From Candidatus Levybacteria bacterium RIFCSPHIGHO2_01_FULL_38_26 (GTDB lineage Bacteria; Patescibacteriota; Microgenomatia; Levybacterales; UBA12049), in the NCBI GenBank assembly GCA_001782075.1, contig MFNO01000013.1, positions 48,608-112,607 of the forward strand: DNA of 64,000 nt. Direction: 5' to 3'. Made by a program: the position numbers and the translations under genes. Positions within the stretch are counted from its first letter, which is position 1; every line of letters begins with the position of its first letter. Below the pieces are notes generated by a model. It was not told the DNA's origin, did no database searches, and saw nothing but the letters and a program-made list of their open reading frames with translations. Below, piece by piece: positions 12,765 to 50,036 of the stretch.

Positions 12765-12765
12765 T

Positions 12766-13887
12766 ATGAGGATCCTGATTTTTAATTGGAGAGACATAAA
12801 AAATCCAACAAGCGGCGGAGCAGAAATTCTTACTCATGAATTGGCGAGGAGATGGGTTGAGAGGGGGAACAAAGTAGTTATGTTTTGTTCTTTTTACAAA
12901 AACGCAAAGCAGAAAGAGTCAGTAGATGGAGTAGAGATTATTAGAGAGGGAAATCCAGACGCAAGACATCTTTGGAATTCTGTACATTTTAAGGCGTTTA
13001 TTAATTATAAAAGAAAATTCAAGGGAAACTTCGACGTTGTCATCGATGAGATTCACGGGCTGCCGTTTTTTACTCCGCTTTATGTAAAGGAGAAAAAGAT
13101 TGCGTTAATATGCGAGGTGGCAGGAGGACTTTGGTACAAAATGTATGGTTCAATTTTTGGCTCTATTGGGAGGCTTGTTGAAATAATTTATCTTAAATTA
13201 TTTTATCAACAGCTGCATTTTCTTACTATCTCAAATTCAACAAAACATGATCTTATCTCAAATGGCATAAAAGAAAGCTATATACATGTAATTCCGATGG
13301 GAGTAAAATTGCCAAATTATAAGAGAAGTATTCTTAAAGAAAAAGCACCAACTTTATTGGTTGTTGGAAGATTATCCAAACCCAAAGGAATAGAAGACGC
13401 GATAAAAGTTTTAGAATATGTTTTAAAATTCATGCCTTCAGCAAGACTTTGGATTGTGGGACGAGGAGAAGCGGAGTACACCAATTATCTAAAAAAAATA
13501 ACTAGTGATAAGGGGCTCGAGAATAAAGTCGTGTTTTATGGCTATGTTTCTGAAGACGAAAAATTCAGTCTAATGTCTAGAGCCCACTTATTGCTTGTCC
13601 CGTCAACTAAAGAAGGATTTGGTTTGACCATCCCGGAAGCTGGTTTTGCGGGCACACTTTCTATTGTATATAAAGTCAGCGGTTTGAGAGATATAGTAGA
13701 GGAGGGTGTAAATGGAATTATTGTTAATAAAGATCCTCTTTCGATGGGCAAAGCAGTAGTTGAAATTTTAAGTGATAAGAAAAAATACGCTGAAATTAGG
13801 AAAAATGCAATTGAGTTTTCTAAAAGATTCGATTATGAAGCTTCTGGAAGTGAAACTCTTAATTTGATTGCGAAGTATTCACTTTAG
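12766..13887 (+). CDS. GT4 glycosyltransferase
   Basis: EGFGLTIPEAGFAGTLSIV. The start was taken at MRILIF, just after the upstream stop. Confidence 0.85.
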   Translation: MRILIFNWRDIKNPTSGGAEILTHELARRWVERGNKVVMFCSFYKNAKQKESVDGVEIIREGNPDARHLWNSVHFKAFINYKRKFKGNFDVVIDEIHGLPFFTPLYVKEKKIALICEVAGGLWYKMYGSIFGSIGRLVEIIYLKLFYQQLHFLTISNSTKHDLISNGIKESYIHVIPMGVKLPNYKRSILKEKAPTLLVVGRLSKPKGIEDAIKVLEYVLKFMPSARLWIVGRGEAEYTNYLKKITSDKGLENKVVFYGYVSEDEKFSLMSRAHLLLVPSTKEGFGLTIPEAGFAGTLSIVYKVSGLRDIVEEGVNGIIVNKDPLSMGKAVVEILSDKKKYAEIRKNAIEFSKRFDYEASGSETLNLIAKYSL

Positions 13888-20529: not shown

Positions 20530-21489
20530 ATGGGGAAACATATGCAAAATATTAGTCTTGTAGCTGGAGGAGCTGGATTTATCGGATCTCATCTTTGCAA
20601 AAATCTGTTAAAAAATGGCCATACGATAATTTGCCTTGATGATTTATCAACAGGAAGCAAAAGAAATATAGATCCGTTTTTGGATAATAAGAATTTTATA
20701 TTTATAAATGGTAGCGTAACAGATTCAAAAGTTATCCTTGAATTGGATAAGCTTTCAATAAATGAAATATTCCATTTAGCAAGTCCTGCTTCAGTAACAT
20801 ATATTATGGATCATCCTGTAGATGCAGCGCAGGCTAATAGCATCGGGACAAAAAATTTGCTTGAAGTCGCAAGGAAAAAAAACGCAAAGTTTTTGTTCGC
20901 TTCAAGCTCTGAGGTCTATGGTGACCCAAAAGAACATCCTCAAAAAGAGACTTATTGGGGAAATGTCAATCCGATTGGGGTTCGAAGCGGATACGATGAG
21001 GGAAAACGTTTTGGTGAAGCGCTAACGTTTGCCTATCACAGGCAGTACGACATTGATATTAGAATTGTTAGAATATTCAATACATATGGTCCCAACTCAA
21101 GTCCAAAAGACACAAGAATAATTCCAAATTTTGTAACGCAGGCAATTAGAAATGTTCCGCTCACTGTCCATGGAGATGGCACTCAGACTCGTTCTTTATG
21201 CTTCGTCTCTGATTTAGTTGAGGGCATGATGCTTTTGATGGAGTCGGATTACAAAGGACCAGTCAATTTGGGAAGTCCAGATGAATATCGTGTCATAGAT
21301 ATAGCAAAAAAAATTATAGATCGTTTTGATTCAACGTCAAAGATTACTTTTGTTCAAAGACCAAAAGACGACCCTAGCAGAAGAAAGCCAGATATTTCTC
21401 TTGCTCAACAGAAGCTTAATTGGCAGCCAAAAGTTTCATTTGAAGAGGGATTAGGAGAAACCGTGAAATATTTTAAAGAAATTATCTAA
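20530..21489 (+). CDS. uxs: UDP-glucuronate decarboxylase (UDP-xylose synthase)
   Basis: GGAGFIGSHL, YDEGKRFGE and RIFNTYGP are UXS/ArnA-C-domain-like motifs. The start may instead be the Met at 20542. Confidence 0.8.
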   Translation: MGKHMQNISLVAGGAGFIGSHLCKNLLKNGHTIICLDDLSTGSKRNIDPFLDNKNFIFINGSVTDSKVILELDKLSINEIFHLASPASVTYIMDHPVDAAQANSIGTKNLLEVARKKNAKFLFASSSEVYGDPKEHPQKETYWGNVNPIGVRSGYDEGKRFGEALTFAYHRQYDIDIRIVRIFNTYGPNSSPKDTRIIPNFVTQAIRNVPLTVHGDGTQTRSLCFVSDLVEGMMLLMESDYKGPVNLGSPDEYRVIDIAKKIIDRFDSTSKITFVQRPKDDPSRRKPDISLAQQKLNWQPKVSFEEGLGETVKYFKEII

Positions 21490-21490
21490 A

Positions 21491-22759
21491 ATGACCTCGC
21501 TTCTTGAAAAAATAGAATCAAAAACCGCCAGGATAGGTGTTGTTGGGTTGGGTTATGTTGGTTTGCCGCTGGCTATTCTATTTGCGAAAAAGGGATTTTC
21601 GGTAACAGGGTTTGTTAGGAGCAAAGAAAAAAAAGATATGCTCTCAGGTGGAAAAAGCTATATACAGGACGATGATATAGAAAAAAGCTTGCCGGATTTA
21701 GTTAAAAAAAAGAAATTTGTTGCAAAAATCTCAAGTGCCAAAGAAGTTGAGAAGCAAGATGTTATCGTTATTTGTGTTCCTACTCCTGTTACCGAGGGCA
21801 AGAAACCAGATTTGACAGATCTTGAAAAAGTTGCAAAACAGTTATCGCAAGTCGATTTGACAGGCAAGTTGATAGTTAATGAATCAACTGTAGCCCCGTT
21901 TACAACAAGAGATGTCTTGGGAGGTTTTAAATCCAAGTATTTTCTTGTTTGCTCTCCAGAAAGAGTAGACCCGGGGAATAAAAAAAGAACAACTGAATTT
22001 ATACCAAAAGTCATCGGAGGAAAGGACAAAGAGAGCCTGGAACTCGCACGAAGGCTCTATGAGCAAGTTCTCAAAGCTGAGGTTGTTCGGGTAAAAAGCA
22101 TGGAGGCCGCAGAAATGGCAAAAATGCTTGAAAATTCATACAGGGCAGTCAATATCGCGCTGGTCAATGAGTTTTCAAAACTTGCGGAAAAATGCGGCAT
22201 AGACATATTGGATGTGTTAAAAGCCGCAAGCACAAAGTGGACTTTTCAAGCTCACTATCCGAGTATTGGCGTAGGAGGGCACTGTATTCCTGTTGATCCC
22301 TACTATGTTTTGGAGTTGGCTCTCCAAAAAAAACTTTCAATGAGCGTTCTTGAGGAAAGTCTTTTAGAGAATGAAAGAATGCCCGAATATATATTGGAAA
22401 AACTGATGTCTGTATATAAAAAAGGGGATAAGATTTTGATTTATGGGCTAACTTACAAAAAAGACGTTGGTGACTTGCGAGAAAGTCCGGTTTTGGCTTT
22501 TTGCAGTTTACTTAGCAAAAATAAGATTCCTTTCTTTGTGTACGATCCTTTTGTTTTGGATAACGACATGAAGAAGCTAGAGCTGTCGAATAGCGTACTT
22601 GAGAAATCAGATATTTTTGTGGTTGGTACCGCGCACAGTACGTTGTCAAATGATTATAGAAAGGCTGTGGGACCAAATACTATTGTAATTGACGGGCAAA
22701 ATTTCTTTGACAGAAAAGTTGGAAAAAAAGTTATTGGCATTGGGAGAGCTTTTTTGTGA
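21491..22759 (+). CDS. ugd: UDP-glucose/GDP-mannose 6-dehydrogenase-family nucleotide-sugar dehydrogenase (probably UDP-glucose 6-dehydrogenase)
   Basis: IGVVGLGYVGLPLA, catalytic GGHCIPVDP, and 422 aa. Confidence 0.8.
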   Translation: MTSLLEKIESKTARIGVVGLGYVGLPLAILFAKKGFSVTGFVRSKEKKDMLSGGKSYIQDDDIEKSLPDLVKKKKFVAKISSAKEVEKQDVIVICVPTPVTEGKKPDLTDLEKVAKQLSQVDLTGKLIVNESTVAPFTTRDVLGGFKSKYFLVCSPERVDPGNKKRTTEFIPKVIGGKDKESLELARRLYEQVLKAEVVRVKSMEAAEMAKMLENSYRAVNIALVNEFSKLAEKCGIDILDVLKAASTKWTFQAHYPSIGVGGHCIPVDPYYVLELALQKKLSMSVLEESLLENERMPEYILEKLMSVYKKGDKILIYGLTYKKDVGDLRESPVLAFCSLLSKNKIPFFVYDPFVLDNDMKKLELSNSVLEKSDIFVVGTAHSTLSNDYRKAVGPNTIVIDGQNFFDRKVGKKVIGIGRAFL

Positions 22760-25505: not shown

Positions 25506-26243
25506 TTGTATCACACTATATATAATATTGCTGTGTTGAAATCGGTTAAACAGAAGACGAGCTTATCTATTGTTATTCCTGCTTACAATGAAGAAGAAAG
25601 CTTGGGTTACGTACTGCGGGATACGCTAAAAGATGTTCCTAAAGTTGTAAAAGACTACGAAGTTATAGTTGTGGATGATGGCTCAGAAGACAACACGCCA
25701 CAAATAGCAGACTCATATGCTAAAAAAAATAGACACGTCCGGGTTATCCATCAGAGGCAGGGTGGATTCAACAAGGCAATGATAACAGGGCTTAGGAGGG
25801 CAAAAAAAGATTATGTTGCTTACATGCACGCCGGCGGTCAAGAATTGATAAGAGATATGATTAATTGTATAAGAATCATGCAAAATTATGATTTGGTACT
25901 AGGTATTAGAGGGAAAAGAATTGATTACAACCCGTATCGTTTGCTTCTATCCTATGGTGCTTTGGTAATTTATAGAGTGCTTTTTGGGATTACTTACGAA
26001 GACGTGCACTGGGTTTACATTTGGAAAACAAAAGAAGTGCAAAAACTAAAACTCGATCCAAAAGGAGGAATATTTTTACTTGTTGAGAGTTTGGTTAAAT
26101 TCAAAAGAAAGGGTCTTAAGATTGGTGAAGCATTAGCACCGTATAGACCCAGGTATGGAGGAGACAATAAAAATACCAGCATAAAAGTGGTATGGCAAAC
26201 TATTATTAGTATTTTTAAACTGCGGCGCAAAATTGTTATATGA
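25506..26243 (+). CDS. GT2, DPM1-like polyprenyl-phosphate glycosyltransferase
   Basis: LSIVIPAYNEEESLGYVL...YEVIVVDDGSEDNT. Confidence 0.8.
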   Translation: MYHTIYNIAVLKSVKQKTSLSIVIPAYNEEESLGYVLRDTLKDVPKVVKDYEVIVVDDGSEDNTPQIADSYAKKNRHVRVIHQRQGGFNKAMITGLRRAKKDYVAYMHAGGQELIRDMINCIRIMQNYDLVLGIRGKRIDYNPYRLLLSYGALVIYRVLFGITYEDVHWVYIWKTKEVQKLKLDPKGGIFLLVESLVKFKRKGLKIGEALAPYRPRYGGDNKNTSIKVVWQTIISIFKLRRKIVI

Positions 26244-26950
26244 CCAAACATTTTAAGCTAGGCGAGTCGCTTTCTATAGTTATTCCTTCTTACAACGAAG
26301 AAGGTAATTTAGGAAATTTGGTTAAAGAGACTTTAGAAGACGCCAAAAAAATAGCTTCAGATTTTGAAATTATTATAGTAAATGACGGCTCGTCTGACAA
26401 AACAGGAAATGTAGCTAATTCGTTGGCAAAGGTATACAAACTTGTCCGAGTAATTCACCACAAAAAAAATCAAGGACTTGCTCTGGCTTGGAAAACGGGC
26501 ATCCAGGCTTGTAAAAAAGATATTATTCTTTACATTGAAGGAGATGGACAGCAACCTTTCAAAGATCAATACGATCTTTTGAGAAAAATAAAAAATGCAG
26601 ACCTTGTGTTGGGTACCCGTACTCACAGATTTGACTATACATTTTTTCGCAAAACCCTCTCATACGGATATCTTTTTTTAATTTGGTTATTTTTTAACCT
26701 CAAATATAAAGACGTTGGCTGGTCTCAGGCATATAGGCGCAAAATCTTTGATAAAATACAAATGAAGTCGGTTACCCCATTTTTCGACACAGAAGTTGTA
26801 ATCAAAGCTTTAAGGAATGGATTTAAGGTTGTTGAGGCACGCTCATTTTACCGTCCTCGGAAGGCCGGCTCAACAAGTTTGGGCAATATTCAGACGGCTT
26901 ATAAAATGTTTGACGAAATGGTAAAGATGAGATTAGGCTTTCTTGATTAG
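26240..26950 (+). CDS. GT2, DPM1-like; tandem paralog of 25506..26243
   Basis: LSIVIPSYNEEGNLGNLV...FEIIIVNDGSSDKT; the alignment to the upstream gene is colinear. Confidence 0.8.
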   Translation: MTKHFKLGESLSIVIPSYNEEGNLGNLVKETLEDAKKIASDFEIIIVNDGSSDKTGNVANSLAKVYKLVRVIHHKKNQGLALAWKTGIQACKKDIILYIEGDGQQPFKDQYDLLRKIKNADLVLGTRTHRFDYTFFRKTLSYGYLFLIWLFFNLKYKDVGWSQAYRRKIFDKIQMKSVTPFFDTEVVIKALRNGFKVVEARSFYRPRKAGSTSLGNIQTAYKMFDEMVKMRLGFLD

Positions 26951-27011: not shown

Positions 27012-28013
27012 ATGGCAAAATTGCTTGTAACTGGCGGCGCCGGATTTATCGGGTCAAACTTTATCCATTATTGGTTATCAAAACACCCAAAAGACTCAAT
27101 TGTTAATTTGGACAAACTTACCTACGCAGGTCATTTAGAGAATCTCGCAGGACTTGAAGACAATCCCAGATATACTTTTGTCAAAGGAGATATTACAAAT
27201 AGAGCAGATGTTGACTGGGCAATTAAAAACGTTGACGCCGTAGTGCATTTTGCAGCGGAAAGTCATGTGGATAGATCCATCGAGGAGCCGCTTGAGTTTA
27301 TCAAAACAAATGTTCTAGGGACAGGGGTTCTTTTGGATGCTGCGTTGCGGCACGGACGAAAAAGATTTCACCATATTTCAACAGATGAAGTTTATGGAGA
27401 GCTGAGAGTCAAAGATCTGCCATTCAATGAAAAATCTCCTCTAAATCCGCGAAGCCCATACGCCTCATCAAAAGCAGCATCGGATTTATTGGTCAAAACT
27501 TACTACACTGCTTATGGGTTGCCGGTAACTATCACAAACTGCGCGAATAACTACGGTCCGTATCAGGACGTGGAAAAACTTATTCCCCGTTTTATCACAA
27601 GGCTTTTATCCAACAAAAAAGTAACCTTGATGAGTAGAGGGGAAAATATTAGAAGCTGGTTGGCAGTAATAGACCATTGCAGAGCAGTTGATATTGTTTT
27701 GAAGAAAGGAAAGATAGGGGAGATTTACTGCGTTGGAGGAGAAGAAAAAACAAATCTTCAGATAACGCAAAGCATATTAAAAATCTTGGGAAAAGATAAG
27801 TCCTGGATAAGTTTTATCTGGAATAGAGCTGTGAATGATTTTAGGTATGCGCTTGATGACTCGAAGATTAGAAAGTTGGGTTGGAAACCAAAACATAATT
27901 TTGAAAAAAGACTCAAAGAAGCAGTTGAATGGTATAAAAAAAATGAGTGGTGGTGGAAAAAACCAACTCTAAAGCAAACTTTAATTGATTTTAAAAATAC
28001 TTTATGGCAATAA
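27012..28013 (+). CDS. rmlB: dTDP-glucose 4,6-dehydratase
   Basis: LLVTGGAGFIGSNF, HFAAESHVDRSI and YASSKAASD are canonical RmlB motifs. Confidence 0.9.
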   Translation: MAKLLVTGGAGFIGSNFIHYWLSKHPKDSIVNLDKLTYAGHLENLAGLEDNPRYTFVKGDITNRADVDWAIKNVDAVVHFAAESHVDRSIEEPLEFIKTNVLGTGVLLDAALRHGRKRFHHISTDEVYGELRVKDLPFNEKSPLNPRSPYASSKAASDLLVKTYYTAYGLPVTITNCANNYGPYQDVEKLIPRFITRLLSNKKVTLMSRGENIRSWLAVIDHCRAVDIVLKKGKIGEIYCVGGEEKTNLQITQSILKILGKDKSWISFIWNRAVNDFRYALDDSKIRKLGWKPKHNFEKRLKEAVEWYKKNEWWWKKPTLKQTLIDFKNTLWQ

Positions 28014-28393
28014 GAGTTAAGCATATAAAACCGGAGTTTGTAGATGAAAGGGGTGGAATAGCGCGTGTTGTAGATCAGGATAAATTTCCAATCAGAGCAA
28101 TCCTTAGGATCACAAGCAAAAAAGGCACAACAAGAGCAAACCATTTCCACAAAACCGACTATCATTATATATATGTAGAGAGTGGTAAATGCGAATATTC
28201 TGAGATAGATTCAAAAAACAAAACTGGAAAAGCAGAAACTGTAATATTAGAATCTGGCGATGTAGTTTTATCGCGTCCTGGAATAATACACGGAGTAAAA
28301 TTTTTGGAAGACACTGTTATTTATGCATTTACAACTGAGAGAAGAGAGCAGGACATGTATGAGAAGGATATTAAAAGAATAAAAATAGTTTAG
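28004..28393 (+). CDS. Small cupin, FdtA/WxcM-like NDP-4-keto-6-deoxyhexose 3,4-ketoisomerase (or RmlC-like epimerase)
   Basis: 129 aa with FVDERGGIARV...RANHFHK..., the conserved DERG and H-x-H pattern of FdtA-type cupins. Confidence 0.55.
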   Translation: MAIRVKHIKPEFVDERGGIARVVDQDKFPIRAILRITSKKGTTRANHFHKTDYHYIYVESGKCEYSEIDSKNKTGKAETVILESGDVVLSRPGIIHGVKFLEDTVIYAFTTERREQDMYEKDIKRIKIV

Positions 28394-28401
28394 ATACCAA
28401 T

Positions 28402-29646
28402 ATGGCAAAAGTTAAAAAGATTAATTATTGCAGGTTGTGTAAGAGTAAAAATTTGGAAAAAGTTTTGGATTTTGGAAAAACTCCAACGGCAAATTCATTC
28501 CTTAAAAAAAGTCAACTTAGAGATAAAGAGGATTTTTTCCCACTTGCTGTTAATTTTTGTAAAAATTGCGGCCAGCTTCAGCTTAGCCACGTTGTGTCTC
28601 CTGAAATAATGTTTCGACATTATGTTTGGGTGTCTTCAACATCTCCTGTAACTGTAAAACACTTTGAAGAATACGCAAAATCTGTTTTTAACAATCTTTT
28701 GCTTAAGAAGGGGGATTTGGTAGTTGAGATGGGAAGTAACGACGGCGTTCTTTTGAAACCTTTTAAAAAACTTGGGATGAGGGTTTTGGGTGTTGATCCG
28801 GCAAGAAATGTCGCGAAAAGAGCTACAAAAGAAGGAATTCCAACTCTACCGCATTTTTTTAATACAAAGGTTGCAAAACAAATTGCCAAAAAATATGGGC
28901 GAGGAAAAGTTATCGCAGCCAACAATGTCTTCGCGCACATCAATGATTTAGACGAAATTGTAAAAGCAGTTGGTGAACTTTTGGATAAAGACGGCGCTTT
29001 TGTAATTGAGGCGCCGTACAATATAGATCTTGTGGAGAAAAATCTTTTTGACATTGTATATCACGAACACCTTTCATATTTGGCTATAAAACCGCTGGAT
29101 AAATTTTTCGTTAACCATGGAATGCAAATTTTTGACGTTGTTAAAAAAGACGTACATGGAGGCTCGGTCAGAGTTTATGTTAAGTTTAAAGAAGCAAAAT
29201 ATAAGGTTAAAGGTTCTGTTAAGAAATTTATAGATCTGGAGAAAAAGAAAAAACTATTTAATATAGATACTTATCGAAGGTTTGCAAGAAAAATTGAAGA
29301 AAACAAAATTAAGCTATCTAAGCTTTTGCGAAAACTAAAAAAAGAAAAAAAGAGTATTGCGGGATACGGAGCGCCGGCAAAAAGCACGACTCTTCTTCAC
29401 TATTTTAATCTTGGTACTGAGAATCTTGATTTTATAGCTGACGACAGCCCCTATAAACAAGGACTTTTTACTCCGGGAAAGCACATTCCGGTTATTTCGC
29501 CAAAAGAAATTTATACAAAAAATCCAGACTATCTTCTCATTTTGGCTTGGAATTTTGCAGATTCGGTTATGAAAATGCACGAGAAATACAAAAAGGCTGG
29601 GGGGAAATTTATTATTCCAGTTCCGAGCCCTACAATTTATGATTAA
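28402..29646 (+). CDS. NDP-hexose C-methyltransferase-family protein (Zn-ribbon + SAM MTase + C-methyltransferase C-terminal domain; TylCIII-like)
   Basis: N-terminal Cys4 (CRLCKS...CKNCG), a central VVEMGSNDGVLL SAM motif, a C-terminal domain of about 130 aa, and 414 aa in total. Confidence 0.65.
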   Translation: MAKVKKINYCRLCKSKNLEKVLDFGKTPTANSFLKKSQLRDKEDFFPLAVNFCKNCGQLQLSHVVSPEIMFRHYVWVSSTSPVTVKHFEEYAKSVFNNLLLKKGDLVVEMGSNDGVLLKPFKKLGMRVLGVDPARNVAKRATKEGIPTLPHFFNTKVAKQIAKKYGRGKVIAANNVFAHINDLDEIVKAVGELLDKDGAFVIEAPYNIDLVEKNLFDIVYHEHLSYLAIKPLDKFFVNHGMQIFDVVKKDVHGGSVRVYVKFKEAKYKVKGSVKKFIDLEKKKKLFNIDTYRRFARKIEENKIKLSKLLRKLKKEKKSIAGYGAPAKSTTLLHYFNLGTENLDFIADDSPYKQGLFTPGKHIPVISPKEIYTKNPDYLLILAWNFADSVMKMHEKYKKAGGKFIIPVPSPTIYD

Positions 29647-30691
29647 AAGCAGAGTCGTTCAAAACGATATTAGAAAAATAGCGTTGCGGATTAAAAAAGA
29701 CGCAAAAATTTTAAGCGGAAAGACAGTTTTAATTACTGGCGGTTCTGGCTTTTTGGGTAAATATTTCCTGTATACAATTTGGTATTTAAATAAAAATTTA
29801 TTCTCAAAACCAGCTAGAGTAGTTTCATTGGATAATTATATTACCGGAACAAAAGATAATCCTTTTGTGAATGATGAGAATTTTAAATTCATTAAACACG
29901 ATGTAAGAGAACCTTTTTACTTGAAAGATCGTGTTGATTATATAATTCATGCGGCCGGCATTGCGTCGCCGGTTTTTTATATGAAGTATCCACTTGAGAC
30001 ACTTGAAGTTGCAACATTTGGTACCAAGTATATGCTGGAATTTGCAAAATCCAAAAAAGTAAAAAGTTTTTTGTTTTTTAGCTCCAGCGAAGTTTATGGA
30101 GATCCTGATCCTAATTTTGTTCCAACACCGGAGAATTATCCAGGAAACGTTTCTTGTACGGGGCCAAGAGCTTGTTATGATGAATCGAAAAGACTTGGCG
30201 AGACTTTGTGTACGATTTATCACAGCTTATACAAACTTCCTGCTAAAATCGTTCGTCCCTTCAATGTTTATGGTCCTGGCATGAAAACCAATGATTATAG
30301 AGTAGTCCCTCGATTTTTAACCAGTGCTTTGAAGAAAGAGCCATTGCCCGTTCATGCCGGGGGAAATCAAACAAGAACCTTTTGTTATATCTCAGATGCT
30401 ATAACAGCATTTTTCAAAGTATTGCTTTCAGACAAGAATGGAGAAGTTTACAATGTCGGTAACGATGAAAATGAAATGAATATGATGACTCTTGCACAAA
30501 CTGTTTCAGGTTTATTTAGGGGTAAACTCCAAGTAAAATCAGTTGATTATCCCTTGACTTATCCTCAAGGAGACCCGAGGAGACGAGCGCCAGATCTTAC
30601 AAAGATAAGGACAGAACTTGGATATAAGCCAATGGTTAATCTGAAAACTGGATTAGAAAGAACACTGAGATGGTACAAAGAAAAGATTTAA
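29639..30691 (+). CDS. Extended-SDR nucleotide-sugar dehydratase/reductase (UXS/ArnA-like)
   Basis: VLITGGSGFLGKYF, YDESKRLGE, RPFNVYGP. Confidence 0.75.
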   Translation: MIKSRVVQNDIRKIALRIKKDAKILSGKTVLITGGSGFLGKYFLYTIWYLNKNLFSKPARVVSLDNYITGTKDNPFVNDENFKFIKHDVREPFYLKDRVDYIIHAAGIASPVFYMKYPLETLEVATFGTKYMLEFAKSKKVKSFLFFSSSEVYGDPDPNFVPTPENYPGNVSCTGPRACYDESKRLGETLCTIYHSLYKLPAKIVRPFNVYGPGMKTNDYRVVPRFLTSALKKEPLPVHAGGNQTRTFCYISDAITAFFKVLLSDKNGEVYNVGNDENEMNMMTLAQTVSGLFRGKLQVKSVDYPLTYPQGDPRRRAPDLTKIRTELGYKPMVNLKTGLERTLRWYKEKI

Positions 30692-32136
30692 TTTTTATCT
30701 TACTTCTTTTGGTTTTGGCATATGTTGCATGGCAACAAATTCCACAGCTTGTGATTAGGGGCGACGGATTTGTTTATATGGTTTCCTCAACGCTAAATGA
30801 GTTTTTTGGCAGAGATTACTTTTACACAGGATTTGAGTTGTCAGCTGCCGTTCTGGGTTTAATACTTCCAGCATTATACAAAACCAATATCAGTTATTAT
30901 TTTTACACCTCGCTTTTTGTCATGATGATTATCAATGTGTTTTTTTATATTCTTCTTCGATTCATTACAAAAAACAAGGTTGTATCCTTTTTTGGAGCTC
31001 TAATATTTGCCGTGAATTATTTTGGTAATTTTGATATGTATTCTCAGCATTGTTATTGCTTTTTTACGGAGCGCATAGTGCCTGTGATTTTTATACTTCC
31101 CGCTTTTTTATTCCTCCATTTATTTTTGGAAAAACAAAAGATCAAGTATTATTTTATTTCTATTCTCTTATATTTTCTAGGGATAGGCATGGGACATTTT
31201 GTAGTATTATTTACCGCGCCGTTTTTTTTGTACCCAATTTTTTGGTATCTTTTTAAAAACAAAAAAATTATTGAGCGAACAAAAGGGATACTGATTGGCG
31301 CACCCTATTTAATGACAAGTGGATTTTTTGTTTTAATTCAGAGGGTACATGAGGCAGGGCTTGAGAAAAAAGTAGGGCTTTTAGAATTTTTACTCAATCC
31401 CCAGGCTACACAATATCCTGAAAAAATAGTAAGGCAGTTAGTTTATTGGTCCGAGTACGAACCGATAATTTTAAACTTTGGCAGAGCATCGCTTCATAGC
31501 TATATTGATGTACAAAGCGCCGTATCAATCACTCCTTATGTTGTGGGAATTTATATACTTGCGGCTCTTATTTTGTTTATCAAGTTAACTCATATGAGAG
31601 CACTTCTTCTTACAACTATTTTTGGAACGCTTTCAATTTTTTATTTAAATGCCTGGTTTGGTCAGTATGATGTACTAAATCAACCGGGAGCAAACAGATA
31701 TCTTTATCTTCCAACAATTCTTCTTGTTATTTTCTGGACGCTGTTTTTGTGGATGCTCTGGAAGAGCAAGTATAGGATTATAAAAATATTGGCAATTGTA
31801 TTAGTTGCCATTTATTATCTTCTGAATTGGATAATAATTTCCGACATGTTTAGAGATGTGCTTTTTTGGGACAGATCAACAAAAGTAACCTATCAATATA
31901 TGAATTCAATTAGAGAACGTTTACCCAAGGGCACCCTAGTCGTTGCTCCGTACCCCGAGGTCGGAGTATATGAGTCAATGTTTTTTACAGAACAAATAGG
32001 AAATGGAGAGGTTGAGTTTTTGGCAGAGGATCATCCCTATAGGGATTGGGTACAGGCTGCAAGTGCTTCAGCCCATGTTGTCAGGCTTAAATATGATAAG
32101 GAATGCGACTGCATTAAAGAGATAAAAATAAAATAA
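30670..32136 (+). CDS. Polytopic membrane protein (GT-C-like candidate)
   Basis: About 12 TM, 488 aa. Confidence 0.5.
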   Translation: MVQRKDLIFILLLLVLAYVAWQQIPQLVIRGDGFVYMVSSTLNEFFGRDYFYTGFELSAAVLGLILPALYKTNISYYFYTSLFVMMIINVFFYILLRFITKNKVVSFFGALIFAVNYFGNFDMYSQHCYCFFTERIVPVIFILPAFLFLHLFLEKQKIKYYFISILLYFLGIGMGHFVVLFTAPFFLYPIFWYLFKNKKIIERTKGILIGAPYLMTSGFFVLIQRVHEAGLEKKVGLLEFLLNPQATQYPEKIVRQLVYWSEYEPIILNFGRASLHSYIDVQSAVSITPYVVGIYILAALILFIKLTHMRALLLTTIFGTLSIFYLNAWFGQYDVLNQPGANRYLYLPTILLVIFWTLFLWMLWKSKYRIIKILAIVLVAIYYLLNWIIISDMFRDVLFWDRSTKVTYQYMNSIRERLPKGTLVVAPYPEVGVYESMFFTEQIGNGEVEFLAEDHPYRDWVQAASASAHVVRLKYDKECDCIKEIKIK

Positions 32137-32140
32137 ATTT

Positions 32141-32872
32141 ATGTGGAGAAATAGGCAGGTGGCATTGATTCTTCCCACTTATAAAGAAAAGAAATCTATC
32201 GCTTCTGTGATTAGTAAATTTGATGCGATGGGATTTATTGATGATATAGTGGTTGTTGATAATAACGCGGAGAAAGGCACTAGAGAAGAAGTAGCTAAAA
32301 CCCGCGCGAGAGTTGTTGCTGAGAGAAAACAAGGATACGGAAACGCAATACGCAAAGGAATAATGTCCACAAAAGCGCCACTAGTTATTATTGCCGAACC
32401 GGACGGATCATTCGATGGAAAAGATGTGGTCAAGCTTCTTGCCTATAGCGATGATTTTGATATGGTATTTGGATCGCGTACTCATTTGCCTCTGGTCCAG
32501 AAAGGTTCGGACATGAGGCTTTATAAAAGACTTGGGGATGTGTTCTTGGGAAGGATAATTACCTGGCTTTTCTTAGGTCCTCCTCTTACTGATGTTGGCT
32601 GCACGCTTCGGATCACCAGCATAAAAGCGTGGAAGAAAATAGAGTCGGAGTGTAAATCAGAAGATGGAATTTTCGCAACCGAGTGGCTGGCTGTTGCCGC
32701 CAAGAATCGTATTCGATTTATAGAAATTCCTATAAATTATAAGGCCAGGGTAGGAAAATCTCTTTTTGTCGAAAAGCCGTATACTAAAGGAACAGTATGG
32801 GGAATACGAAAATTCTATTGCATATTAAAGGTGTGGTTATATGGCATCTTAAACAAGAAGCTTTATGAGTAA
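32141..32872 (+). CDS. GT2, DPM1-like
   Basis: VALILPTYKEKKSIASV...IVVVDNNAEKGT...IAEPDGS. Confidence 0.8.
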   Translation: MWRNRQVALILPTYKEKKSIASVISKFDAMGFIDDIVVVDNNAEKGTREEVAKTRARVVAERKQGYGNAIRKGIMSTKAPLVIIAEPDGSFDGKDVVKLLAYSDDFDMVFGSRTHLPLVQKGSDMRLYKRLGDVFLGRIITWLFLGPPLTDVGCTLRITSIKAWKKIESECKSEDGIFATEWLAVAAKNRIRFIEIPINYKARVGKSLFVEKPYTKGTVWGIRKFYCILKVWLYGILNKKLYE

Positions 32873-33809
32873 GAAAGAATTTATACGGACATTGTGTATT
32901 TTTTGCAAAAGTAAACCAACCCTTTCGCTTTTAGGTTTAACTGACTATTGGCATTGTCCAGACTGTGGCATTGCTTGGGTAAAAAAAATTCCAAAAGTAG
33001 AGTATGGGGACATGTATTACAAAGGAAAATCAACTTTGGCATCTAGAGTTTTTGCTCCTATTGGCAAAACGTTTTACAGCCTGAGAAGCACATATGCAGG
33101 AAATGGGGGGAAGAAAGTTTGGATAGATGTCGGAGCTGGAGACGGTGGATTTTTGAGTACTGTTGCAGCAAAAAAGAAAATTGGAGTTGAGGTATCTTCC
33201 TCGGGCAGAAAAATAATGCAGCAAAATGGGCTTGATACTTTGACTGACAGGCAATTTTTGAAATCAAAAGGACTTAATGCAGATATCATAAGCTTTTGGC
33301 ATGTTCTTGAGCATGTTGAAAAACCATGGGAATATTTGGAATCAGCGAAAAGAAATTTAAAGAAAAATGGCAAAATAATTATCGGTATTCCAAATATAGA
33401 CAGTTTTGAATTCAAGTACGCAAAAAAATATTGGTTTCATTTACAACCGCAATTTCATTTGTGGCATTTTACTCCAAAGTCAGTCAAGAAGCTTTTGGAT
33501 ATAACAGGGTTTACAGTGAATAAAATAGATCATTGGTCAATCGAGCATCATCCGACTGGCGTACTTCAATCGTTTATAAATAAATCATCAGGATCTTCTG
33601 AAAATGTTTTGCACAAACTGATAAAAAGAGGAACAGGAAAATCACATCTTGCGCCAAAAGATATTTTTTGGGTCGGATTCTGGACGTCCATTGGCTCACC
33701 AATTATCTTTTCTTTTTGGCTCGGAGGCTCGATTTTCCGAAAAGCAGGAACTATTGTAGTTGTTGCTTCTAAAAGTGCTTATAAATTTTCATCTCCAAAG
33801 ATAAAGTAA
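32865..33809 (+). CDS. SAM-dependent methyltransferase with N-terminal Zn-ribbon
   Basis: CIFCKS...CPDCG, WIDVGAGDGGF, then a short C-terminal hydrophobic segment. Confidence 0.7.
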   Translation: MSKKEFIRTLCIFCKSKPTLSLLGLTDYWHCPDCGIAWVKKIPKVEYGDMYYKGKSTLASRVFAPIGKTFYSLRSTYAGNGGKKVWIDVGAGDGGFLSTVAAKKKIGVEVSSSGRKIMQQNGLDTLTDRQFLKSKGLNADIISFWHVLEHVEKPWEYLESAKRNLKKNGKIIIGIPNIDSFEFKYAKKYWFHLQPQFHLWHFTPKSVKKLLDITGFTVNKIDHWSIEHHPTGVLQSFINKSSGSSENVLHKLIKRGTGKSHLAPKDIFWVGFWTSIGSPIIFSFWLGGSIFRKAGTIVVVASKSAYKFSSPKIK

Positions 33810-34622: not shown

Positions 34623-35723
34623 CTACTTATAGAATGTTTTAATTTTTTTGCAGATATATTCGATTTCTGAGTCTTTTATTTCAGGGAACATGGGAAGAGA
34701 GAGAGTTTTTTTTGCCAATTTTTCTGCTATCGGAAAATCGCCTTTTTTATAACCTAAATTTTTATATACAGGCTGCAGGTGAATTGGGGTAGGGTAGTGG
34801 ATTACAGTTGATATACCGTTTTTTTCCAAATACTTTTTCAGAGCGTCTCTTTTTTCCGCAAGGATTGCGTATATGTGATACGCATGATAAGCATAAGGCA
34901 TTTCTACAGGCGTCTTGATTTGCTCAATACCTTTTAGCAATTTGTTATATTTTTGGGCTGCTTTTCTTCTTTTCTGGTTCCATTTCTCAAGGTGTTTTAA
35001 TTTAGCAAGTAGAATACTTGCATGGAGCGTATCAAGCCGGGATTTATAGCCAAAAGTTTCATGGACATATTTTTCAACTGATCCGTCATTTCGAAGATAT
35101 TTTAGTTTTTCTTTAATTTGTTTATTATCGGTAACGACTGCGCCTCCATCTCCAAACGCGCCCAAATTTTTTCCGGGATAAAAAGAAAATGCCCCTGTTT
35201 CTGTATAGGGGAGTATTTTATCTTTGTATTTTCCGCCATGGGCTTGGCAGCAATCTTCAATAATAATCAGGCGGTGTTTTTTTGCGATATCAACAATCGG
35301 ATCCATGTCAGCTGACTGTCCATATAAATGTATCGGGATAATTGCTTTTGTTTTTCTTGTGATTCTTTTTTCAATTTCTTTTGGATCTATGTTGTAGCTT
35401 TTTGGATCTACATCTGCCAAAACAGGCGTGGCTGCGACATTGGATACTGTCATGGCGCTGGCTATATAGCTATTTGCGGCGGTAATAACTTCATCCCCTT
35501 TGCCTATTCCGTACGCAATAAGGGTAAGAAATAACGCATCGGTTCCAGAGTTTAGCCCTACAGCATACTTTTTGTCGCAAAAAGCGGCAAATTTTTTTTC
35601 AAATTCTTCAAGCGGTTTTCCAAGAGAAAAAGTAGCGTTAAAAACAGTATCTTCAATTGCTTTTGTTATTTCTTTTTTATAAATTCTGTTTTGTCTTTTT
35701 AAATCAACGAAGTCTATATTCAC
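34623..35723 (-). CDS. DegT/DnrJ/EryC1/StrS-family PLP-dependent nucleotide-sugar aminotransferase
   Basis: LNSGTDALFL, SFYPGKNLGAFGDGGAV. Confidence 0.85.
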   Translation of the reverse strand: MNIDFVDLKRQNRIYKKEITKAIEDTVFNATFSLGKPLEEFEKKFAAFCDKKYAVGLNSGTDALFLTLIAYGIGKGDEVITAANSYIASAMTVSNVAATPVLADVDPKSYNIDPKEIEKRITRKTKAIIPIHLYGQSADMDPIVDIAKKHRLIIIEDCCQAHGGKYKDKILPYTETGAFSFYPGKNLGAFGDGGAVVTDNKQIKEKLKYLRNDGSVEKYVHETFGYKSRLDTLHASILLAKLKHLEKWNQKRRKAAQKYNKLLKGIEQIKTPVEMPYAYHAYHIYAILAEKRDALKKYLEKNGISTVIHYPTPIHLQPVYKNLGYKKGDFPIAEKLAKKTLSLPMFPEIKDSEIEYICKKIKTFYK

Positions 35724-38734: not shown

Positions 38735-39691
38735 ATGAAATATTATAATGATAAAAAGATTGTTATAACTGGAGGAGGAGGATTTGTCGGAAGTCACATT
38801 GTTGATAGATTAAAAAGATATAATTGTAAATTTTTTGTTCCCAAAACAAAAGATGGAATTGATTTTAGAAAATACGATCATTGTTTTTCATATCTTAGCA
38901 AAACAAAACCTGATATTGTAATTAACTGCGCTGCCAATCAGGGCGGAATTGCGTATCATAGAGGCAAAGAAGCGGATCTTTTTTTGGACAATATGCTTAT
39001 GGGAACATTTCTTCTGCAGGCTTCTCAAAAAGTTGGGGTTAAAAAATTTGTTAACATTGTCGCGGGGTGTTCTTATCCAGGATACGGAGAGAGCGAAAAG
39101 ATGAATGAAGATGAGTACTGGAACGGGAGGCTTCATGAGAGCATATTTAGTTTTGGTTTTCCAAGAAAAGCTTCAACTGCCTATGGATTGGCGCTAAAAA
39201 GACAACATGGTTTTAACTCGATTCATCTTGTTATGGCTAACATGTTTGGTCCTGGTGAACACTTTAATCCAGAGCAAAGCAAGGCGTTGGCTGGGCTTAT
39301 AAAAAAAATTTATGAGGCGAAAAAAAATAAATTGCCTACGGTTGAGGTGTGGGGTACAGGTAAGCCTACGAGGGATTGGCTATATGTGAAAGACGGCGCA
39401 GAGGCGATTTTAAGAGCGACTGCTTTTTACGATGATGTGGATCCGTTAAATATCGCGACCGGTGTTGGAATTTCTATTGCAAAGCTTGCGAGAACTATAA
39501 AAAAAGTTATAGCCTACAAAGGCAGACTCGTGTACAATACCAAAAAACCAGACGGCGCACTTCATAAAACATTTGGAGTAAAAAAAATGAAAAAGGTTTT
39601 AGGTTGGGTTCCGTCGACCCCTATAGAAAAAGGAATAAAAGAAACAGTTGACTGGTTTGACAAGAACTACAAATATGCTATAACTCATTGA
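38735..39691 (+). CDS. GDP-L-fucose synthase-like (GMER/Fcl-like) SDR epimerase-reductase
   Basis: VITGGGGFVGSH, INCAANQGGI, ANMFGPGEHFNPEQS; a GMER-like architecture. Confidence 0.7.
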   Translation: MKYYNDKKIVITGGGGFVGSHIVDRLKRYNCKFFVPKTKDGIDFRKYDHCFSYLSKTKPDIVINCAANQGGIAYHRGKEADLFLDNMLMGTFLLQASQKVGVKKFVNIVAGCSYPGYGESEKMNEDEYWNGRLHESIFSFGFPRKASTAYGLALKRQHGFNSIHLVMANMFGPGEHFNPEQSKALAGLIKKIYEAKKNKLPTVEVWGTGKPTRDWLYVKDGAEAILRATAFYDDVDPLNIATGVGISIAKLARTIKKVIAYKGRLVYNTKKPDGALHKTFGVKKMKKVLGWVPSTPIEKGIKETVDWFDKNYKYAITH

Positions 39692-40502: not shown

Positions 40503-41645
40503 ATGAAAAAAAAGGATTATGAAATTGACGACAATATAATTCGTACCTGGTCAACATACATCCCCAAAGAAGCGATTTCCGAGGTTATAAAAACATTAAG
40601 GTCAAAGTGGATTAATACCGGCAAAAAAGAAAAAGAACTGCGGGGGATTGCAGCGAAAAAGTGGAGTTTTCCTTATTGCGTTGCTGTTAACAATTGTACT
40701 GCTGCTCTTAGGTCAAGTTTGGCTATCCTTGGCGTTGGACCTGGGGATGAAGTCATATCAACTCCTTATACTTTTATTGCCACAAACACCGCTATTCTTG
40801 AACAAGGAGCAAAGCCTGTATTTGCAGATATTAAATACGATGATCTTAATATAGACCCAAAAAGCATAGAGAAGAATATAACCAAAAAAACAAAGGCAAT
40901 TATGATAGTGCATTATGGCGGCAATCCTTGCGACCTGGATGAGTTAAGAAAGATCGGAGTGAAACATAATCTGCCAATTATAGAAGACGCCGCGCATGCT
41001 TTGGGAAGCATGTATAAAGGTAAATACATAGGTTCAACTGGAGAACTTGTATGTTTTTCTCTTCAGGTAGTTAAAATTATTAATTCTGGCGATGGAGGAT
41101 TAATATCAACATCAAAAAAAAGATACTACCAAAAGCTCAAAAAAATAATTTGGTACGGTATTGATAGAGAGGAGAAAAAAACAAGCCTTTTGGACCCTTT
41201 GCCAGACAGCTTCAAGGGCGATGTTCTTGGATTTAAATATAATATGAATGATATTATAGCTTCGCTTGCTCTGGCAGGGGTTAATAATTATGATGCTCCA
41301 GCCAGAAAAAGAAGGATAATAGGAGAGAGTTATAGGAAGGAACTTGCCAAATGCAGGGGGCTGCGTCTGATGAAGTACTATGATGATAGAAAGCCAAACT
41401 ATCAGATATTTCCTGCTCATGTAGAGGATAGACTTAAGTTTGCCAGGTACATGAAAGCCCACAATATTCAAGTAAACATAAACAACCGGCGTAATGATAT
41501 TTACCCTATGTTTGGAGGGCTTCGAAAGGATTTACCTGTGCTTGCGAAAGCTGATAAAGACGTAGTTTTACTGCCGATGCATGCGGATCTTACAGAAGGG
41601 CAAGTTGATTACATTATTCAGAAAGTTCGGGATGCGTGTAAATGA
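40503..41645 (+). CDS. DegT/DnrJ/EryC1-family PLP-dependent sugar aminotransferase
   Basis: NCTAALRSSL...DEVISTPYTF...SLQVVKIINSGDGG. Confidence 0.8.
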   Translation: MKKKDYEIDDNIIRTWSTYIPKEAISEVIKTLRSKWINTGKKEKELRGIAAKKWSFPYCVAVNNCTAALRSSLAILGVGPGDEVISTPYTFIATNTAILEQGAKPVFADIKYDDLNIDPKSIEKNITKKTKAIMIVHYGGNPCDLDELRKIGVKHNLPIIEDAAHALGSMYKGKYIGSTGELVCFSLQVVKIINSGDGGLISTSKKRYYQKLKKIIWYGIDREEKKTSLLDPLPDSFKGDVLGFKYNMNDIIASLALAGVNNYDAPARKRRIIGESYRKELAKCRGLRLMKYYDDRKPNYQIFPAHVEDRLKFARYMKAHNIQVNINNRRNDIYPMFGGLRKDLPVLAKADKDVVLLPMHADLTEGQVDYIIQKVRDACK

Positions 41646-44784: not shown

Positions 44785-45558
44785 ATGAAAAAAAACTCAA
44801 ATCAAGAAAGACGTCTAGATTTTATAGCCAAAACATTGAAAAATCTTTCTGTGAATGTTGCTAGATTTCTAAATGGAATAGGTGTTACGCCCAATATGAT
44901 TACATCATTAAGATTATTAATAGGTGCTGGATCTTCTTATTTATTTTTTCTTCAGGGATATGTAACGGATTTGCTTGCCATTTTCTTTTTAGGCTTATTT
45001 TTTTTTCTTGATTTGGTGGACGGAGACTTGGCGAGAAAATTCAAAAAAACTTCCAAGCTGGGAGAATTTATGGACAGTTTTATAGACGCTGTTATAATTA
45101 ATTTGGTTTTGCTTGCAATTTATGGAAACCTAAATGCTGCAGCTAATCCTTTTAGTTATATTCCTGTAATAGCCATCATGGGACAAGGGCTGTCTGTTCT
45201 CATATCTCAAAACTATGAAGCTAAATTTGGCATATCGGGCTTGTCTTTAAATCCTAAGATACAATCTTATCGTAAGAACAATGACGTTGATGCTATTAGC
45301 AAATTTCTTTTTGAACTTTTGACACCGACAAATATCTTAACTTCACTTTTTTCCACATTAAAATATTATCTGATTGTTGGCGCGTTATTTAATATAATTC
45401 CTCTTGCGATAACAGCTTATGCCCTTATGATTAATTTAAGATGGATAATGCTTTCTTTTACATTAGCTTTATACTATAAGTACAACCAGCTTGTAAACAA
45501 AATCAATTTTTTTTATATTCTAAAAGCCTTAGAGCGCAATCGTCCACTTGTTATATAA
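44785..45558 (+). CDS. CDP-alcohol phosphotransferase-family membrane protein (intact motif)
   Basis: DLVDGDLARKFKKTSKLGEFMDSFIDAV is D-G-x2-A-R-x8-G-x3-D-x3-D; about 6 TM. Confidence 0.7.
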   Translation: MKKNSNQERRLDFIAKTLKNLSVNVARFLNGIGVTPNMITSLRLLIGAGSSYLFFLQGYVTDLLAIFFLGLFFFLDLVDGDLARKFKKTSKLGEFMDSFIDAVIINLVLLAIYGNLNAAANPFSYIPVIAIMGQGLSVLISQNYEAKFGISGLSLNPKIQSYRKNNDVDAISKFLFELLTPTNILTSLFSTLKYYLIVGALFNIIPLAITAYALMINLRWIMLSFTLALYYKYNQLVNKINFFYILKALERNRPLVI

Positions 45559-45601
45559 GGGAGAGAGGATAAAACTCTAAGAAACTTAGTTTGGTCTTAG
45601 T

Positions 45602-47989: not shown

Positions 47990-47990
47990 G

Positions 47991-49474: not shown

Positions 49475-49495
49475 ATTAGACAAGAATAAATTTTT

Positions 49496-50035: not shown

Positions 50036-50036
50036 T

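Follow-up and report, generated by a model that had tools for sequence, protein, structure and literature searches.

Four co-directional genes at positions 27012–30691 of a stretch of Candidatus Levybacteria DNA (the window, 64,000 nucleotides in all) encode an RmlB-type dehydratase, a small cupin, a C-methyltransferase and an extended short-chain dehydrogenase/reductase (SDR), and very likely direct the synthesis of a C-methyl branched surface sugar. Our preferred, still tentative, interpretation is that they represent, in one of its variants, a conserved module for the C-methylation of nucleotide sugars, situated here in the surface-glycan island of a Levybacteria-like member of the Candidate Phyla Radiation (CPR). 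The conserved core of this module is the cupin, the C-methyltransferase and an SDR resembling the UDP-glucuronate decarboxylase UXS, with entry and exit enzymes that vary by lineage. It is common to many ultra-small bacteria and archaea and is undescribed; no account of a cupin and C-methyltransferase combined with a UXS-like SDR, with or without an oxidoreductase of the Gfo/Idh/MocA family, was found in the literature searched. It surrounds a known type of methyltransferase with different enzymatic partners: a cupin that is minimal and FdtA-like, the UXS-like SDR and usually a Gfo/Idh/MocA protein.

The four proteins of the cassette

The open reading frames occupy 27012–28013, 28004–28393, 28402–29646 and 29639–30691, all on the forward strand, and encode proteins of 333, 129, 414 and 350 amino acids; independent gene calls on L086, a near-identical metagenome contig of 9.9 kb from ENA, give the same four lengths. 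The first two genes overlap by 10 nt (ATGGCAATAA), a gap of 8 nt separates the cupin and methyltransferase genes, the methyltransferase and SDR genes overlap by 8 nt (ATGATTAA) and the SDR gene overlaps the next gene (30670–32136) by 22 nt, confirming the short or overlapping junctions noted in the preliminary description of this DNA. That description had also supposed a small-genome bacterium, in agreement with the nearest genome locus, L003, which comes from a metagenome-assembled genome of Candidatus Levybacteria and shares 82% identity in RmlB, 80% in the cupin and 74% in the methyltransferase. All 64 kb form a glycan island. The G+C content of the window is 31–38%, and the genes include at least 11 extended SDRs, many glycosyltransferases of families GT2 and GT4, several PMT_2/GT-C proteins, two DegT aminotransferases, a Wzx-like flippase and an RmlC-like gene. 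The domain matches of all four cassette proteins are far beyond chance.

The first protein (27012–28013) is, as judged from its sequence, a bona fide dTDP-glucose 4,6-dehydratase, as had been proposed. It scores 439.2 bits against TIGR01181 (cut-off 365.1), its translation contains the NAD site GGAGFIG together with the catalytic ISTDEVYG and YASSK motifs, and the TDE column is unchanged across 9 orthologs.

The third protein (28402–29646) belongs to the Zn-ribbon, S-adenosylmethionine (SAM)-dependent NDP-ketosugar C-methyltransferases of the TylCIII/MtmC/TcaB9 family. It matches PF08421 (5e-24, 84.7 bits), PF13489 (48.1 bits) and PF08484 (2e-56, 190.7 bits), all above the cut-offs, and has cysteines at positions 10, 13, 53 and 56, so the Cys4 Zn-ribbon, the SAM domain and the C-methyltransferase-type C-terminal domain previously ascribed to it are all present. 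The structure of MtmC (4rv9), the D-mycarose 3-C-methyltransferase, is matched with an E-value of 3e-107 over residues 5–412 at ~40% identity, and TcaB9 (2e-70) and KijD1 (~1e-70) align end to end. The VYHEH, FAHI and Y-x-W/Y-x-S-S motifs align with those of MtmC and TcaB9 and are kept in all 76 methyltransferase relatives; the catalytic residues of TcaB9 are presumably Y222, E224, H225, H181 and Y76, in the numbering that we take from the mutant structures 4e2w–4e33. The methyltransferases of the various locus groups are about equidistant from the characterised enzymes, with 38–42% identity to MtmC and 32–34% to TcaB9.

The cupin (28004–28393) is a single-domain protein that passes the Cupin_2 model (PF07883, 32.9 bits, cut-off 27.2). 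Its earlier assignment as FdtA/WxcM-like is supported by its fold, its size, the H-x-H pattern and the profile search, but not by the Pfam FdtA model (PF05523), which it fails to match even at E <= 10. Faint precomputed matches to PF05523 are found in some homologs, one fused homolog reaching 20.9 bits (cut-off 23). A profile built from 41 cupin sequences finds FdtA (2pa7) as its best match in the PDB at 2.5e-5, followed by OxdC (1.5e-4), QdtA (3.6e-4) and the RmlC of S. tokodaii (8e-4). With the AlphaFold2 (AF2) model of the cupin (pLDDT 89.7) as query, ranks 1–29 in Foldseek are taken by FdtA, FdtD, QdtA and HCAN_0198 (E 4.5e-8 to 3.6e-7, TM 0.70–0.78), and the 3,4-ketoisomerases WlaRA and WlaRB also match, with E-values of ~5e-7 to 1e-6. 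Asn46, His47 and His49 are invariant and Lys50 is at least 90% conserved among the 41 sequences. His47 and His49 align with His49 and His51 of FdtA and with the corresponding pair of QdtA, and H49N and H51N mutants of FdtA are present as PDB entries. The cupin family is a distinct one of modest size, its representatives at E <= 1e-10 numbering 511 among 1.84 billion, and the protein is a candidate NDP-ketosugar 3,4-ketoisomerase. A genuine role of this kind is also favoured because the recurring exit enzymes, described below, are C3-directed by family. No second FdtA-like gene was found by tblastn with partial FdtA and QdtA queries. An enzyme of the oxalate-decarboxylase type was considered and rejected; the single-sequence matches to OxdC in the PDB reflect generic cupin motifs and the top-ranking folds are those of ketoisomerases.

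The alternative role for the cupin is that of an epimerase. Following the logic of the mycarose, nogalose and noviose pathways it would be a minimal 3-, 5- or 3,5-epimerase, methylation would take place at C3 (or C5), an SDR would reduce C4, and the product would be a 6-deoxy-3-C-methyl-L-hexose or a related sugar. Known C-methyl sugar pathways do pair their methyltransferases with cupin epimerases (TylK, EryBVII, EvaD, NovW and SnogF), and the characterised homologs of the methyltransferase all act beside a C4 keto group. RmlC-type structures also match the cupin model, with E-values of ~5e-7 to 1e-6 and TM-scores of 0.77–0.79, which can be placed beside the S. tokodaii RmlC in the profile search and the weak matches to PF14667 (Cap5F-type cupin) that recur among the cupin family. 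RmlC proteins, however, are ~180–200 amino acids long with a motif of the H-x-Q form, whereas the cupin has only 129 and the FdtA-like H-x-H-K, and it gives no match to the RmlC model (PF00908) even at E <= 10. A bona fide RmlC was rejected for the cupin, in line with the preliminary description, on the missing PF00908 match and on a separate RmlC-like gene already in the window (8873–9448). With that gene, 3,4-ketoisomerases filling the first 29 Foldseek ranks and conserved partners that are C3-directed, a pathway of the mycarose kind appears distinctly unlikely.

The fourth protein (29639–30691) is an extended SDR (PF01370, 2.5e-45) of the UXS/ArnA type, whose best solved relative is human UXS1 (hUXS1; 4e-63, 217 bits, 40.8% identity). 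It had been taken for an extended-SDR reductase, but is instead a UXS-like paralog with the hallmarks of a decarboxylase. The motifs SSSEVYG, CYDESKR, FNVYGP and RRRAPD are present, and the equivalents of Asn176 and Arg277 (R619 in ArnA) are kept. Among 35 free and 9 fused relatives the S-S-E, Y-D-E-x-K-R, Asn and R-x-P residues show little or no variation, and these core residues match those of hUXS1 and of seven canonical UXS proteins. The roles given here to residues of hUXS1, ArnA, FdtA and TcaB9 are in part presumed, with support from the study of the decarboxylase-like EvdS6 and from the titles of PDB entries.

A canonical UXS is also encoded in the window (20530–21489, forward strand), matching hUXS1 at 5.7e-94 with 318 bits, well above the 217 bits of the cassette protein, and the 350-residue SDR is therefore a paralog. 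The canonical gene is directly followed by that of a UDP-glucose 6-dehydrogenase, Ugd (21491–22759, forward strand; PF03721, PF00984 and PF03720), the two forming a standard supply pair for UDP-glucuronate (UDP-GlcA) and UDP-xylose that is separate from the cassette. Module-linked SDRs have a mean identity of 37.6% to canonical UXS and 55% among themselves, and the SDR of the window carries an N-terminal extension of 27 amino acids. On the basis of these alignments it is a member of a paralogous subfamily of UDP-glucuronate decarboxylase and not an ortholog of canonical UXS. In the EvdS6 paper the TSE triad and the equivalent of ArnA R619 are given as decarboxylase markers, and the last step of UXS-type enzymes as reduction of a C4 keto group (PMC10338323). 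The SDR is probably a C4 oxidoreductase, acting as an oxidative decarboxylase to give a UDP-4-keto-pentose, as a C4 reductase, or as both. Neither a generic reductase nor a housekeeping UXS was retained as a candidate, given the hallmark residues and the canonical UXS gene elsewhere in the window, and a second 4,6-dehydratase was rejected on the S-S-E found in place of T-D-E.

The module across genomes

When 185,579 species genomes were searched with the cupin profile, 80 loci were recovered. They belong to Patescibacteria/CPR, DPANN (Woesearchaeota), Thaumarchaeota and a small number of other groups, and with the metagenome locus L001 they make 81. The flank available was only 10 kb per locus, and RmlA, RmlB and Ugd were scored within it. 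The methyltransferase is present in 74 of the 81 and lies within 250 nt of the cupin in 53; a UXS-like SDR (at least 45% identity) is present in 47 and adjoins the cupin or the methyltransferase in 43; cupin, methyltransferase and SDR are all adjacent in 35. Where the SDR was used as the seed instead, all three contigs obtained carry cupin, methyltransferase and SDR together with a Gfo/Idh/MocA gene. Fusions are found as well. The methyltransferase and SDR form a single open reading frame of ~765 amino acids in nine loci (L017, L029, L034, L035, L036, L039, L044, L045 and L052), the fusion in L036 (10388–12688) being confirmed by Pfam, and cupin-methyltransferase fusions, in which either domain may come first, make up proteins of 534–564 amino acids (P0293, P0339, P0387 and L022 3180–4784). 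Fusions and adjacency together place the cupin, the methyltransferase and the SDR in a single process.

Two types of locus can be distinguished by the remaining genes. In 22 loci the SDR is followed by a gene for a Gfo/Idh/MocA oxidoreductase. In the second type a member of the same Gfo subfamily comes after the cupin, and there are an RmlB (43–49% identity) and the methyltransferase but no UXS-like SDR; the RmlB of one such locus passes the TIGR01181 cut-off. The Gfo proteins of the module are nearest to archaeal UDP-N-acetylglucosamine 3-dehydrogenase, with scores of 112–135 bits that lie below the cut-off, and their best match in the PDB is the uncharacterised oxidoreductase 3c1a. In 49 loci the flank is at least 6 kb on both sides, and of these 11 have RmlB only, 26 the UXS-like SDR only, 3 have both and 9 neither. 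RmlB and the UXS-like SDR thus tend to be mutually exclusive (Fisher p = 0.0011), which suggests that they are alternative entry enzymes, each providing a 4-keto sugar.

The window is unusual in this respect, as are L007 and L014, all three having the order RmlB, cupin, methyltransferase, SDR and no Gfo. Their closest relatives (L001, L003–L006 and L013) have RmlB, cupin and methyltransferase only, with no UXS-like SDR. RmlB lies directly 5' of the cupin in L001, L003, L005–L007, L013 and L014. Immediately upstream of it in the window is a pair of GT2 genes (25506–26243 and 26240–26950, forward strand; PF00535 at 9e-26 and 4.6e-29), and the same pair precedes RmlB, cupin and methyltransferase in L001, L003–L006, L013 and L014, with 54–82% identity.

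A variant of the module was seen in Thaumarchaeota (L054, L058, L059, L065, L066, L075 and L076), where the first gene encodes an extended SDR of 303 amino acids with an S-S-K motif, which is neither the T-D-E of the dehydratases nor the T-S-E of UXS, and is followed by the cupin, a classical SDR of 241 amino acids and a C-methyltransferase of 403. The arrangement points to an entry enzyme of a third kind. A nucleotidyltransferase of ~255 amino acids is encoded in L019 (215–1000), L041 (559–1326) and L048 (5165–5929); its N-terminus we take to resemble that of glucose-1-phosphate cytidylyltransferase (RfbF), and some variants of the module may therefore use CDP-linked sugars.

Proposed pathway and alternatives

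Gene structure, family membership, motif conservation, synteny, fusions and folds are observed; from them we infer the substrates, the order of the steps, the carbon that is methylated and the choice between reduction and amination. At entry, RmlB would give dTDP-4-keto-6-deoxyglucose, and the UXS-like SDR would turn UDP-GlcA, which the Ugd encoded 6 kb upstream can supply, into a UDP-4-keto-pentose; most relatives have one entry enzyme or the other and the window has both. The cupin would interconvert the 4-keto and 3-keto forms through a 3,4-enediol, and the methyltransferase would take a proton from a carbon adjacent to the keto group and methylate that carbon from SAM. Exit by reduction would be the task of the Gfo/Idh/MocA protein in most relatives, or possibly of the SDR itself where the substrate is a pentose, and for exit by transamination the window offers a candidate in a QdtB-like aminotransferase. 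The finished sugar would be put onto polyprenyl phosphate by a GT2 protein (32141–32872) and transferred to a surface acceptor by a GT-C protein (30670–32136).

The aminotransferase (34623–35723, reverse strand) is a DegT-family protein whose best match in the PDB is the sugar C3-aminotransferase QdtB (2e-108), followed by DesV, HCAN_0200, WlaRG and WbpE, with C4-aminotransferases at 1e-57 or weaker. Homologs lie directly beside the cupin and methyltransferase in L015, L024, L025, L031, L050 and L055, and 3–6 kb away in five of six loci with RmlB, cupin and methyltransferase. It is a candidate exit enzyme, converting keto to amino, and by this conservation we infer that it may belong with the cassette. 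RmlB, an FdtA-like cupin and a QdtB-like aminotransferase are also the textbook set for a 3-amino-3,6-dideoxyhexose, and there are many unrelated sugar genes in the island. One could therefore suppose that there is no single pathway here, RmlB, cupin and aminotransferase making a dTDP-3-amino-3,6-dideoxyhexose of the Qui3N/Fuc3N type, the SDR making UDP-xylose or a UDP-4-keto-pentose for another residue, and the methyltransferase serving one of the branches. This we regard as very improbable, as both types of fusion and the adjacency in 53 and 43 of the 81 loci tie cupin, methyltransferase and SDR together, and a canonical UXS is already in the window.

A number of observations weigh against reading the cassette as a variant of the module. 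Because the cupin served as the seed for the loci, its ubiquity among them is partly by construction, although the three SDR-seeded contexts agree. No Gfo/Idh/MocA homolog was found in the window by tblastn, and a regular-expression search of all frames of the 64 kb did not find the N-terminal motif of RmlA, GGxG(T/S)R(L/M/F); the sole nucleotidyltransferase-like gene (48674–49474) has a weak match to NTP_transf_3. The candidate aminotransferase sits 6.4 kb from the cupin and on the opposite strand, and the exclusion between aminotransferase and Gfo is not significant (p = 0.17). In the Foldseek comparison the RmlC-type matches to the cupin model are only ~tenfold weaker in E-value, with similar TM-scores. 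In every homolog of the methyltransferase that has been solved or characterised, methylation is at C3, beside a C4 keto group. It would leave no later isomerisation, reduction or amination at that carbon, so that here either the methyl group is placed on C4, C2 or C5 or the action of the cupin and exit enzymes departs from that of their families. Lastly, with two putative entry enzymes and no adjacent Gfo, the simplest pathway for the four genes would be a linear one with the SDR as reductase.

In such a linear pathway RmlB, the cupin as isomerase, the methyltransferase and the SDR as terminal ketoreductase would yield a dTDP-6-deoxy-C-methyl-hexose, and the cassette would be simply one more C-methyl-6-deoxyhexose pathway of a known type. 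It would be complete without extra genes in a window with no Gfo-type reductase, the four genes are translationally coupled and have the same order in L007 and L014, and UXS-type enzymes do end with reduction of a C4 keto group (PMC10338323). The SDR, on the other hand, has kept its decarboxylase and carboxylate-handling residues across 44 members, it and RmlB tend to exclude each other (p = 0.0011), no RmlB is found within 8 kb in most SDR-bearing loci, and six close relatives have RmlB, cupin and methyltransferase without it. A C4-directed reductase would also be ill-suited to the 3-keto product of a ketoisomerase. Of the pathway outlined in the preliminary description, the assignment to a C-methyl branched sugar holds, but the SDR as a simple terminal reductase is at odds with the exclusion and with the relatives that lack it. 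It is unlikely that the SDR serves simply as the last, indispensable ketoreductase of a linear pathway fed by RmlB, and the linear pathway as a whole seems rather unlikely to us too. Since RmlB and the SDR behave as alternatives, the decarboxylase residues are kept and some relatives have no SDR, a role for both as entry enzymes fits best, as in the variant of the module that we prefer.

The SDR-bearing loci allow a more specific proposal, which is possible but doubtful, namely that UDP-GlcA is converted, by a route not described before, to a C-methyl-branched pentose or its amino derivative by the SDR, methyltransferase and cupin and exported by the GT-C protein, the window being an intermediate with RmlB. 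The decarboxylase would hand UDP-4-keto-pentose straight to the methyltransferase, and export on a lipid carrier would be by a new GT-C family that is invisible to Pfam. The system would be a common means of surface decoration in CPR bacteria and DPANN archaea, and the window an evolutionary intermediate that recruited RmlB for the 6-deoxyhexose analogue. If this is true, the branched pentose or amino-branched sugar would be a new monosaccharide class for prokaryotic glycobiology and its synthesis a new use of UXS-type chemistry, and the compact, partly fused enzymes would be available for the chemo-enzymatic synthesis of branched sugars.

Export, related systems and neighbouring genes

The gene that overlaps the end of the cassette (30670–32136, forward strand) encodes a membrane protein of 488 amino acids with a GT-C fold. 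Pfam has no match for this protein or for any of the 75 homologs. With its AF2 model (pLDDT 93.6, pTM 0.92) as query, Foldseek ranks 1–21 are all GT-C proteins, among them PglB, STT3, ALG12/9, DPY19 and EmbB, with a probability of 1.0 and TM-scores of 0.41–0.49 for ranks 1–20. The protein follows the cassette in L003, L007, L014 and L084. Three tandem paralogs were seen in L003 (10434–15003) and two in L007 (12699–15670), and these proteins appear, from the predicted fold, to form an unannotated GT-C family of CPR bacteria, often in tandem copies. The 488-residue protein probably moves a lipid-linked sugar to an extracytoplasmic acceptor.

Next to it is the GT2 gene (32141–32872, forward strand; PF00535), resembling polyprenyl-phosphate sugar synthases. 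Its NCBIfam scores, of 80 bits for AglJ, 55 for a dolichyl-phosphate hexose transferase and 35 for PpgS, are all below cut-off, and it is co-conserved in L007, L009, L014 and L082 (53–62% identity). It probably loads a sugar onto a lipid carrier. We take this GT2/GT-C pair to be like ArnC and ArnT, in which case the product would be attached to a lipid carrier and then passed to a surface acceptor on the outer side of the membrane. A methyltransferase of the Methyltransf_23 type (32865–33809, forward strand; PF13489, 1.3e-18) comes next, co-conserved with the cassette in L003, L007, L009, L014 and L082 (49–61% identity), and O- or N-methylation of the sugar is a possible function.

The Arn pathway of lipid A modification with 4-amino-4-deoxy-L-arabinose (Ara4N; Ugd, ArnA, ArnB, ArnC, ArnD and ArnT) follows the same logic, with Ugd and a UXS-like enzyme and then an aminotransferase, a GT2 and a GT-C protein. 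The window differs in having neither a formyltransferase nor a deformylase, in an aminotransferase that is of the C3 type and QdtB-like rather than ArnB-like, and in the additional cupin and C-methyltransferase. In L084, a contig of JGI 3300001380 (12057–13678), the SDR-Gfo pair is followed by genes for a PMT-type GT-C protein, a GT2, a polysaccharide deacetylase-type protein and a formyltransferase-type protein. These resemble the ArnA-FT/ArnC/ArnD/ArnT set, and the formyltransferase- and deacetylase-type genes make the analogy stronger. To our knowledge lipid A is not known from CPR bacteria. For uncultivated bacteria and archaea of ultra-small size almost nothing has been characterised of the cell surface, which presumably mediates their episymbiotic way of life.

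Like UXS and the decarboxylases that release a 4-keto-pentose (ArnA, RsU4kpxs and EvdS6/AviE2), the SDR has decarboxylase residues (41% identity to hUXS1), and a Ugd lies in the same island. It differs in being a separate paralog beside a canonical UXS, with the extension of 27 amino acids, and in its linkage or fusion to a C-methyltransferase. EvdS6 itself has been proposed to supply the 4-keto-pentose precursor of a branched sugar, eurekanate (PMC10338323). The cupin shares its fold, length, His pair, D-x-R-G and H-x-H-K motifs and RmlB neighbour with FdtA, QdtA, Tyl1a and WlaRA/WlaRB, and a C3-aminotransferase like that of the QdtB/FdtB systems is also in the island; the identity is only ~20%, however, PF05523 is failed, and the constant and sometimes fused partner of the cupin is a C-methyltransferase, not an aminotransferase or acyltransferase.

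With TylCIII, EryBIII, MtmC, TcaB9 and KijD1 the third protein has in common the three-domain architecture, the catalytic Y-x-E-H and His motifs and an RmlB-type dehydratase upstream. Mycarose-type pathways differ from the cassette in their 2,3-dehydratase and 3-ketoreductase genes for 2-deoxygenation, which are absent here, in an RmlC-type epimerase where the window has a cupin of FdtA size, in a reductase of the TylCII/EryBIV type where it has a UXS-like SDR, and in leading to actinomycete antibiotics, whereas the cassette lies in a CPR surface-glycan island with a lipid-carrier GT2 and a GT-C protein. Actinomycete antibiotics are the main known source of C-methyl branched sugars, a few lipopolysaccharide (LPS) or lipooligosaccharide antigens being the others, and we know of C-methyl sugar enzymology being worked out only for dTDP-2,6-dideoxyhexoses. 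The rarity of such an enzyme set in a surface-glycan locus was nevertheless overstated in the preliminary description, the argument being weakened because the module is widespread in CPR and DPANN genomes and because a TylCIII-like C-methyltransferase acting on an NDP-4-keto-6-deoxyhexose has been proposed in silico for virenose (6-deoxy-3-C-methyl-gulose) in the LPS of Coxiella burnetii (PMC3539893). In both cases a TylCIII-like enzyme is placed within a cell-surface glycan locus. The Coxiella scheme uses Gmd and an epimerase/reductase of the GDP-fucose-synthase type, with no FdtA-like cupin, UXS-like SDR or Gfo/Idh/MocA protein.

The RmlC-like protein (8873–9448, forward strand) has 191 amino acids and matches PF00908 with 48.3 bits. 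RmlB may also feed an ordinary rhamnose-type branch through it, and no clear RmlD or RmlA was identified in the window alongside it. Beside the QdtB-like aminotransferase is a methyltransferase of 247 amino acids, whose matches in the PDB are generic; DesVI reaches only 3.7e-7, so that a role as N,N-dimethyltransferase is unsupported. The second DegT-family aminotransferase (40503–41645, forward strand) has NCBIfam matches below cut-off, and between the two DegT genes is a GDP-fucose-synthase-like SDR (38735–39691) with 213 bits against a cut-off of 500. The genes at 44785–50753 (forward strand) are unlike the rest of the island. They encode a CDP-alcohol phosphatidyltransferase, a protein of 795 amino acids with phosphoenolpyruvate (PEP)-utilising mobile and PPDK_N domains, a class-I glutamine amidotransferase/peptidase C26, the NTP_transf_3 nucleotidyltransferase, a histidine phosphatase and a methyltransferase, and may provide a phospho-linked head group that is added to a glycan or lipid.

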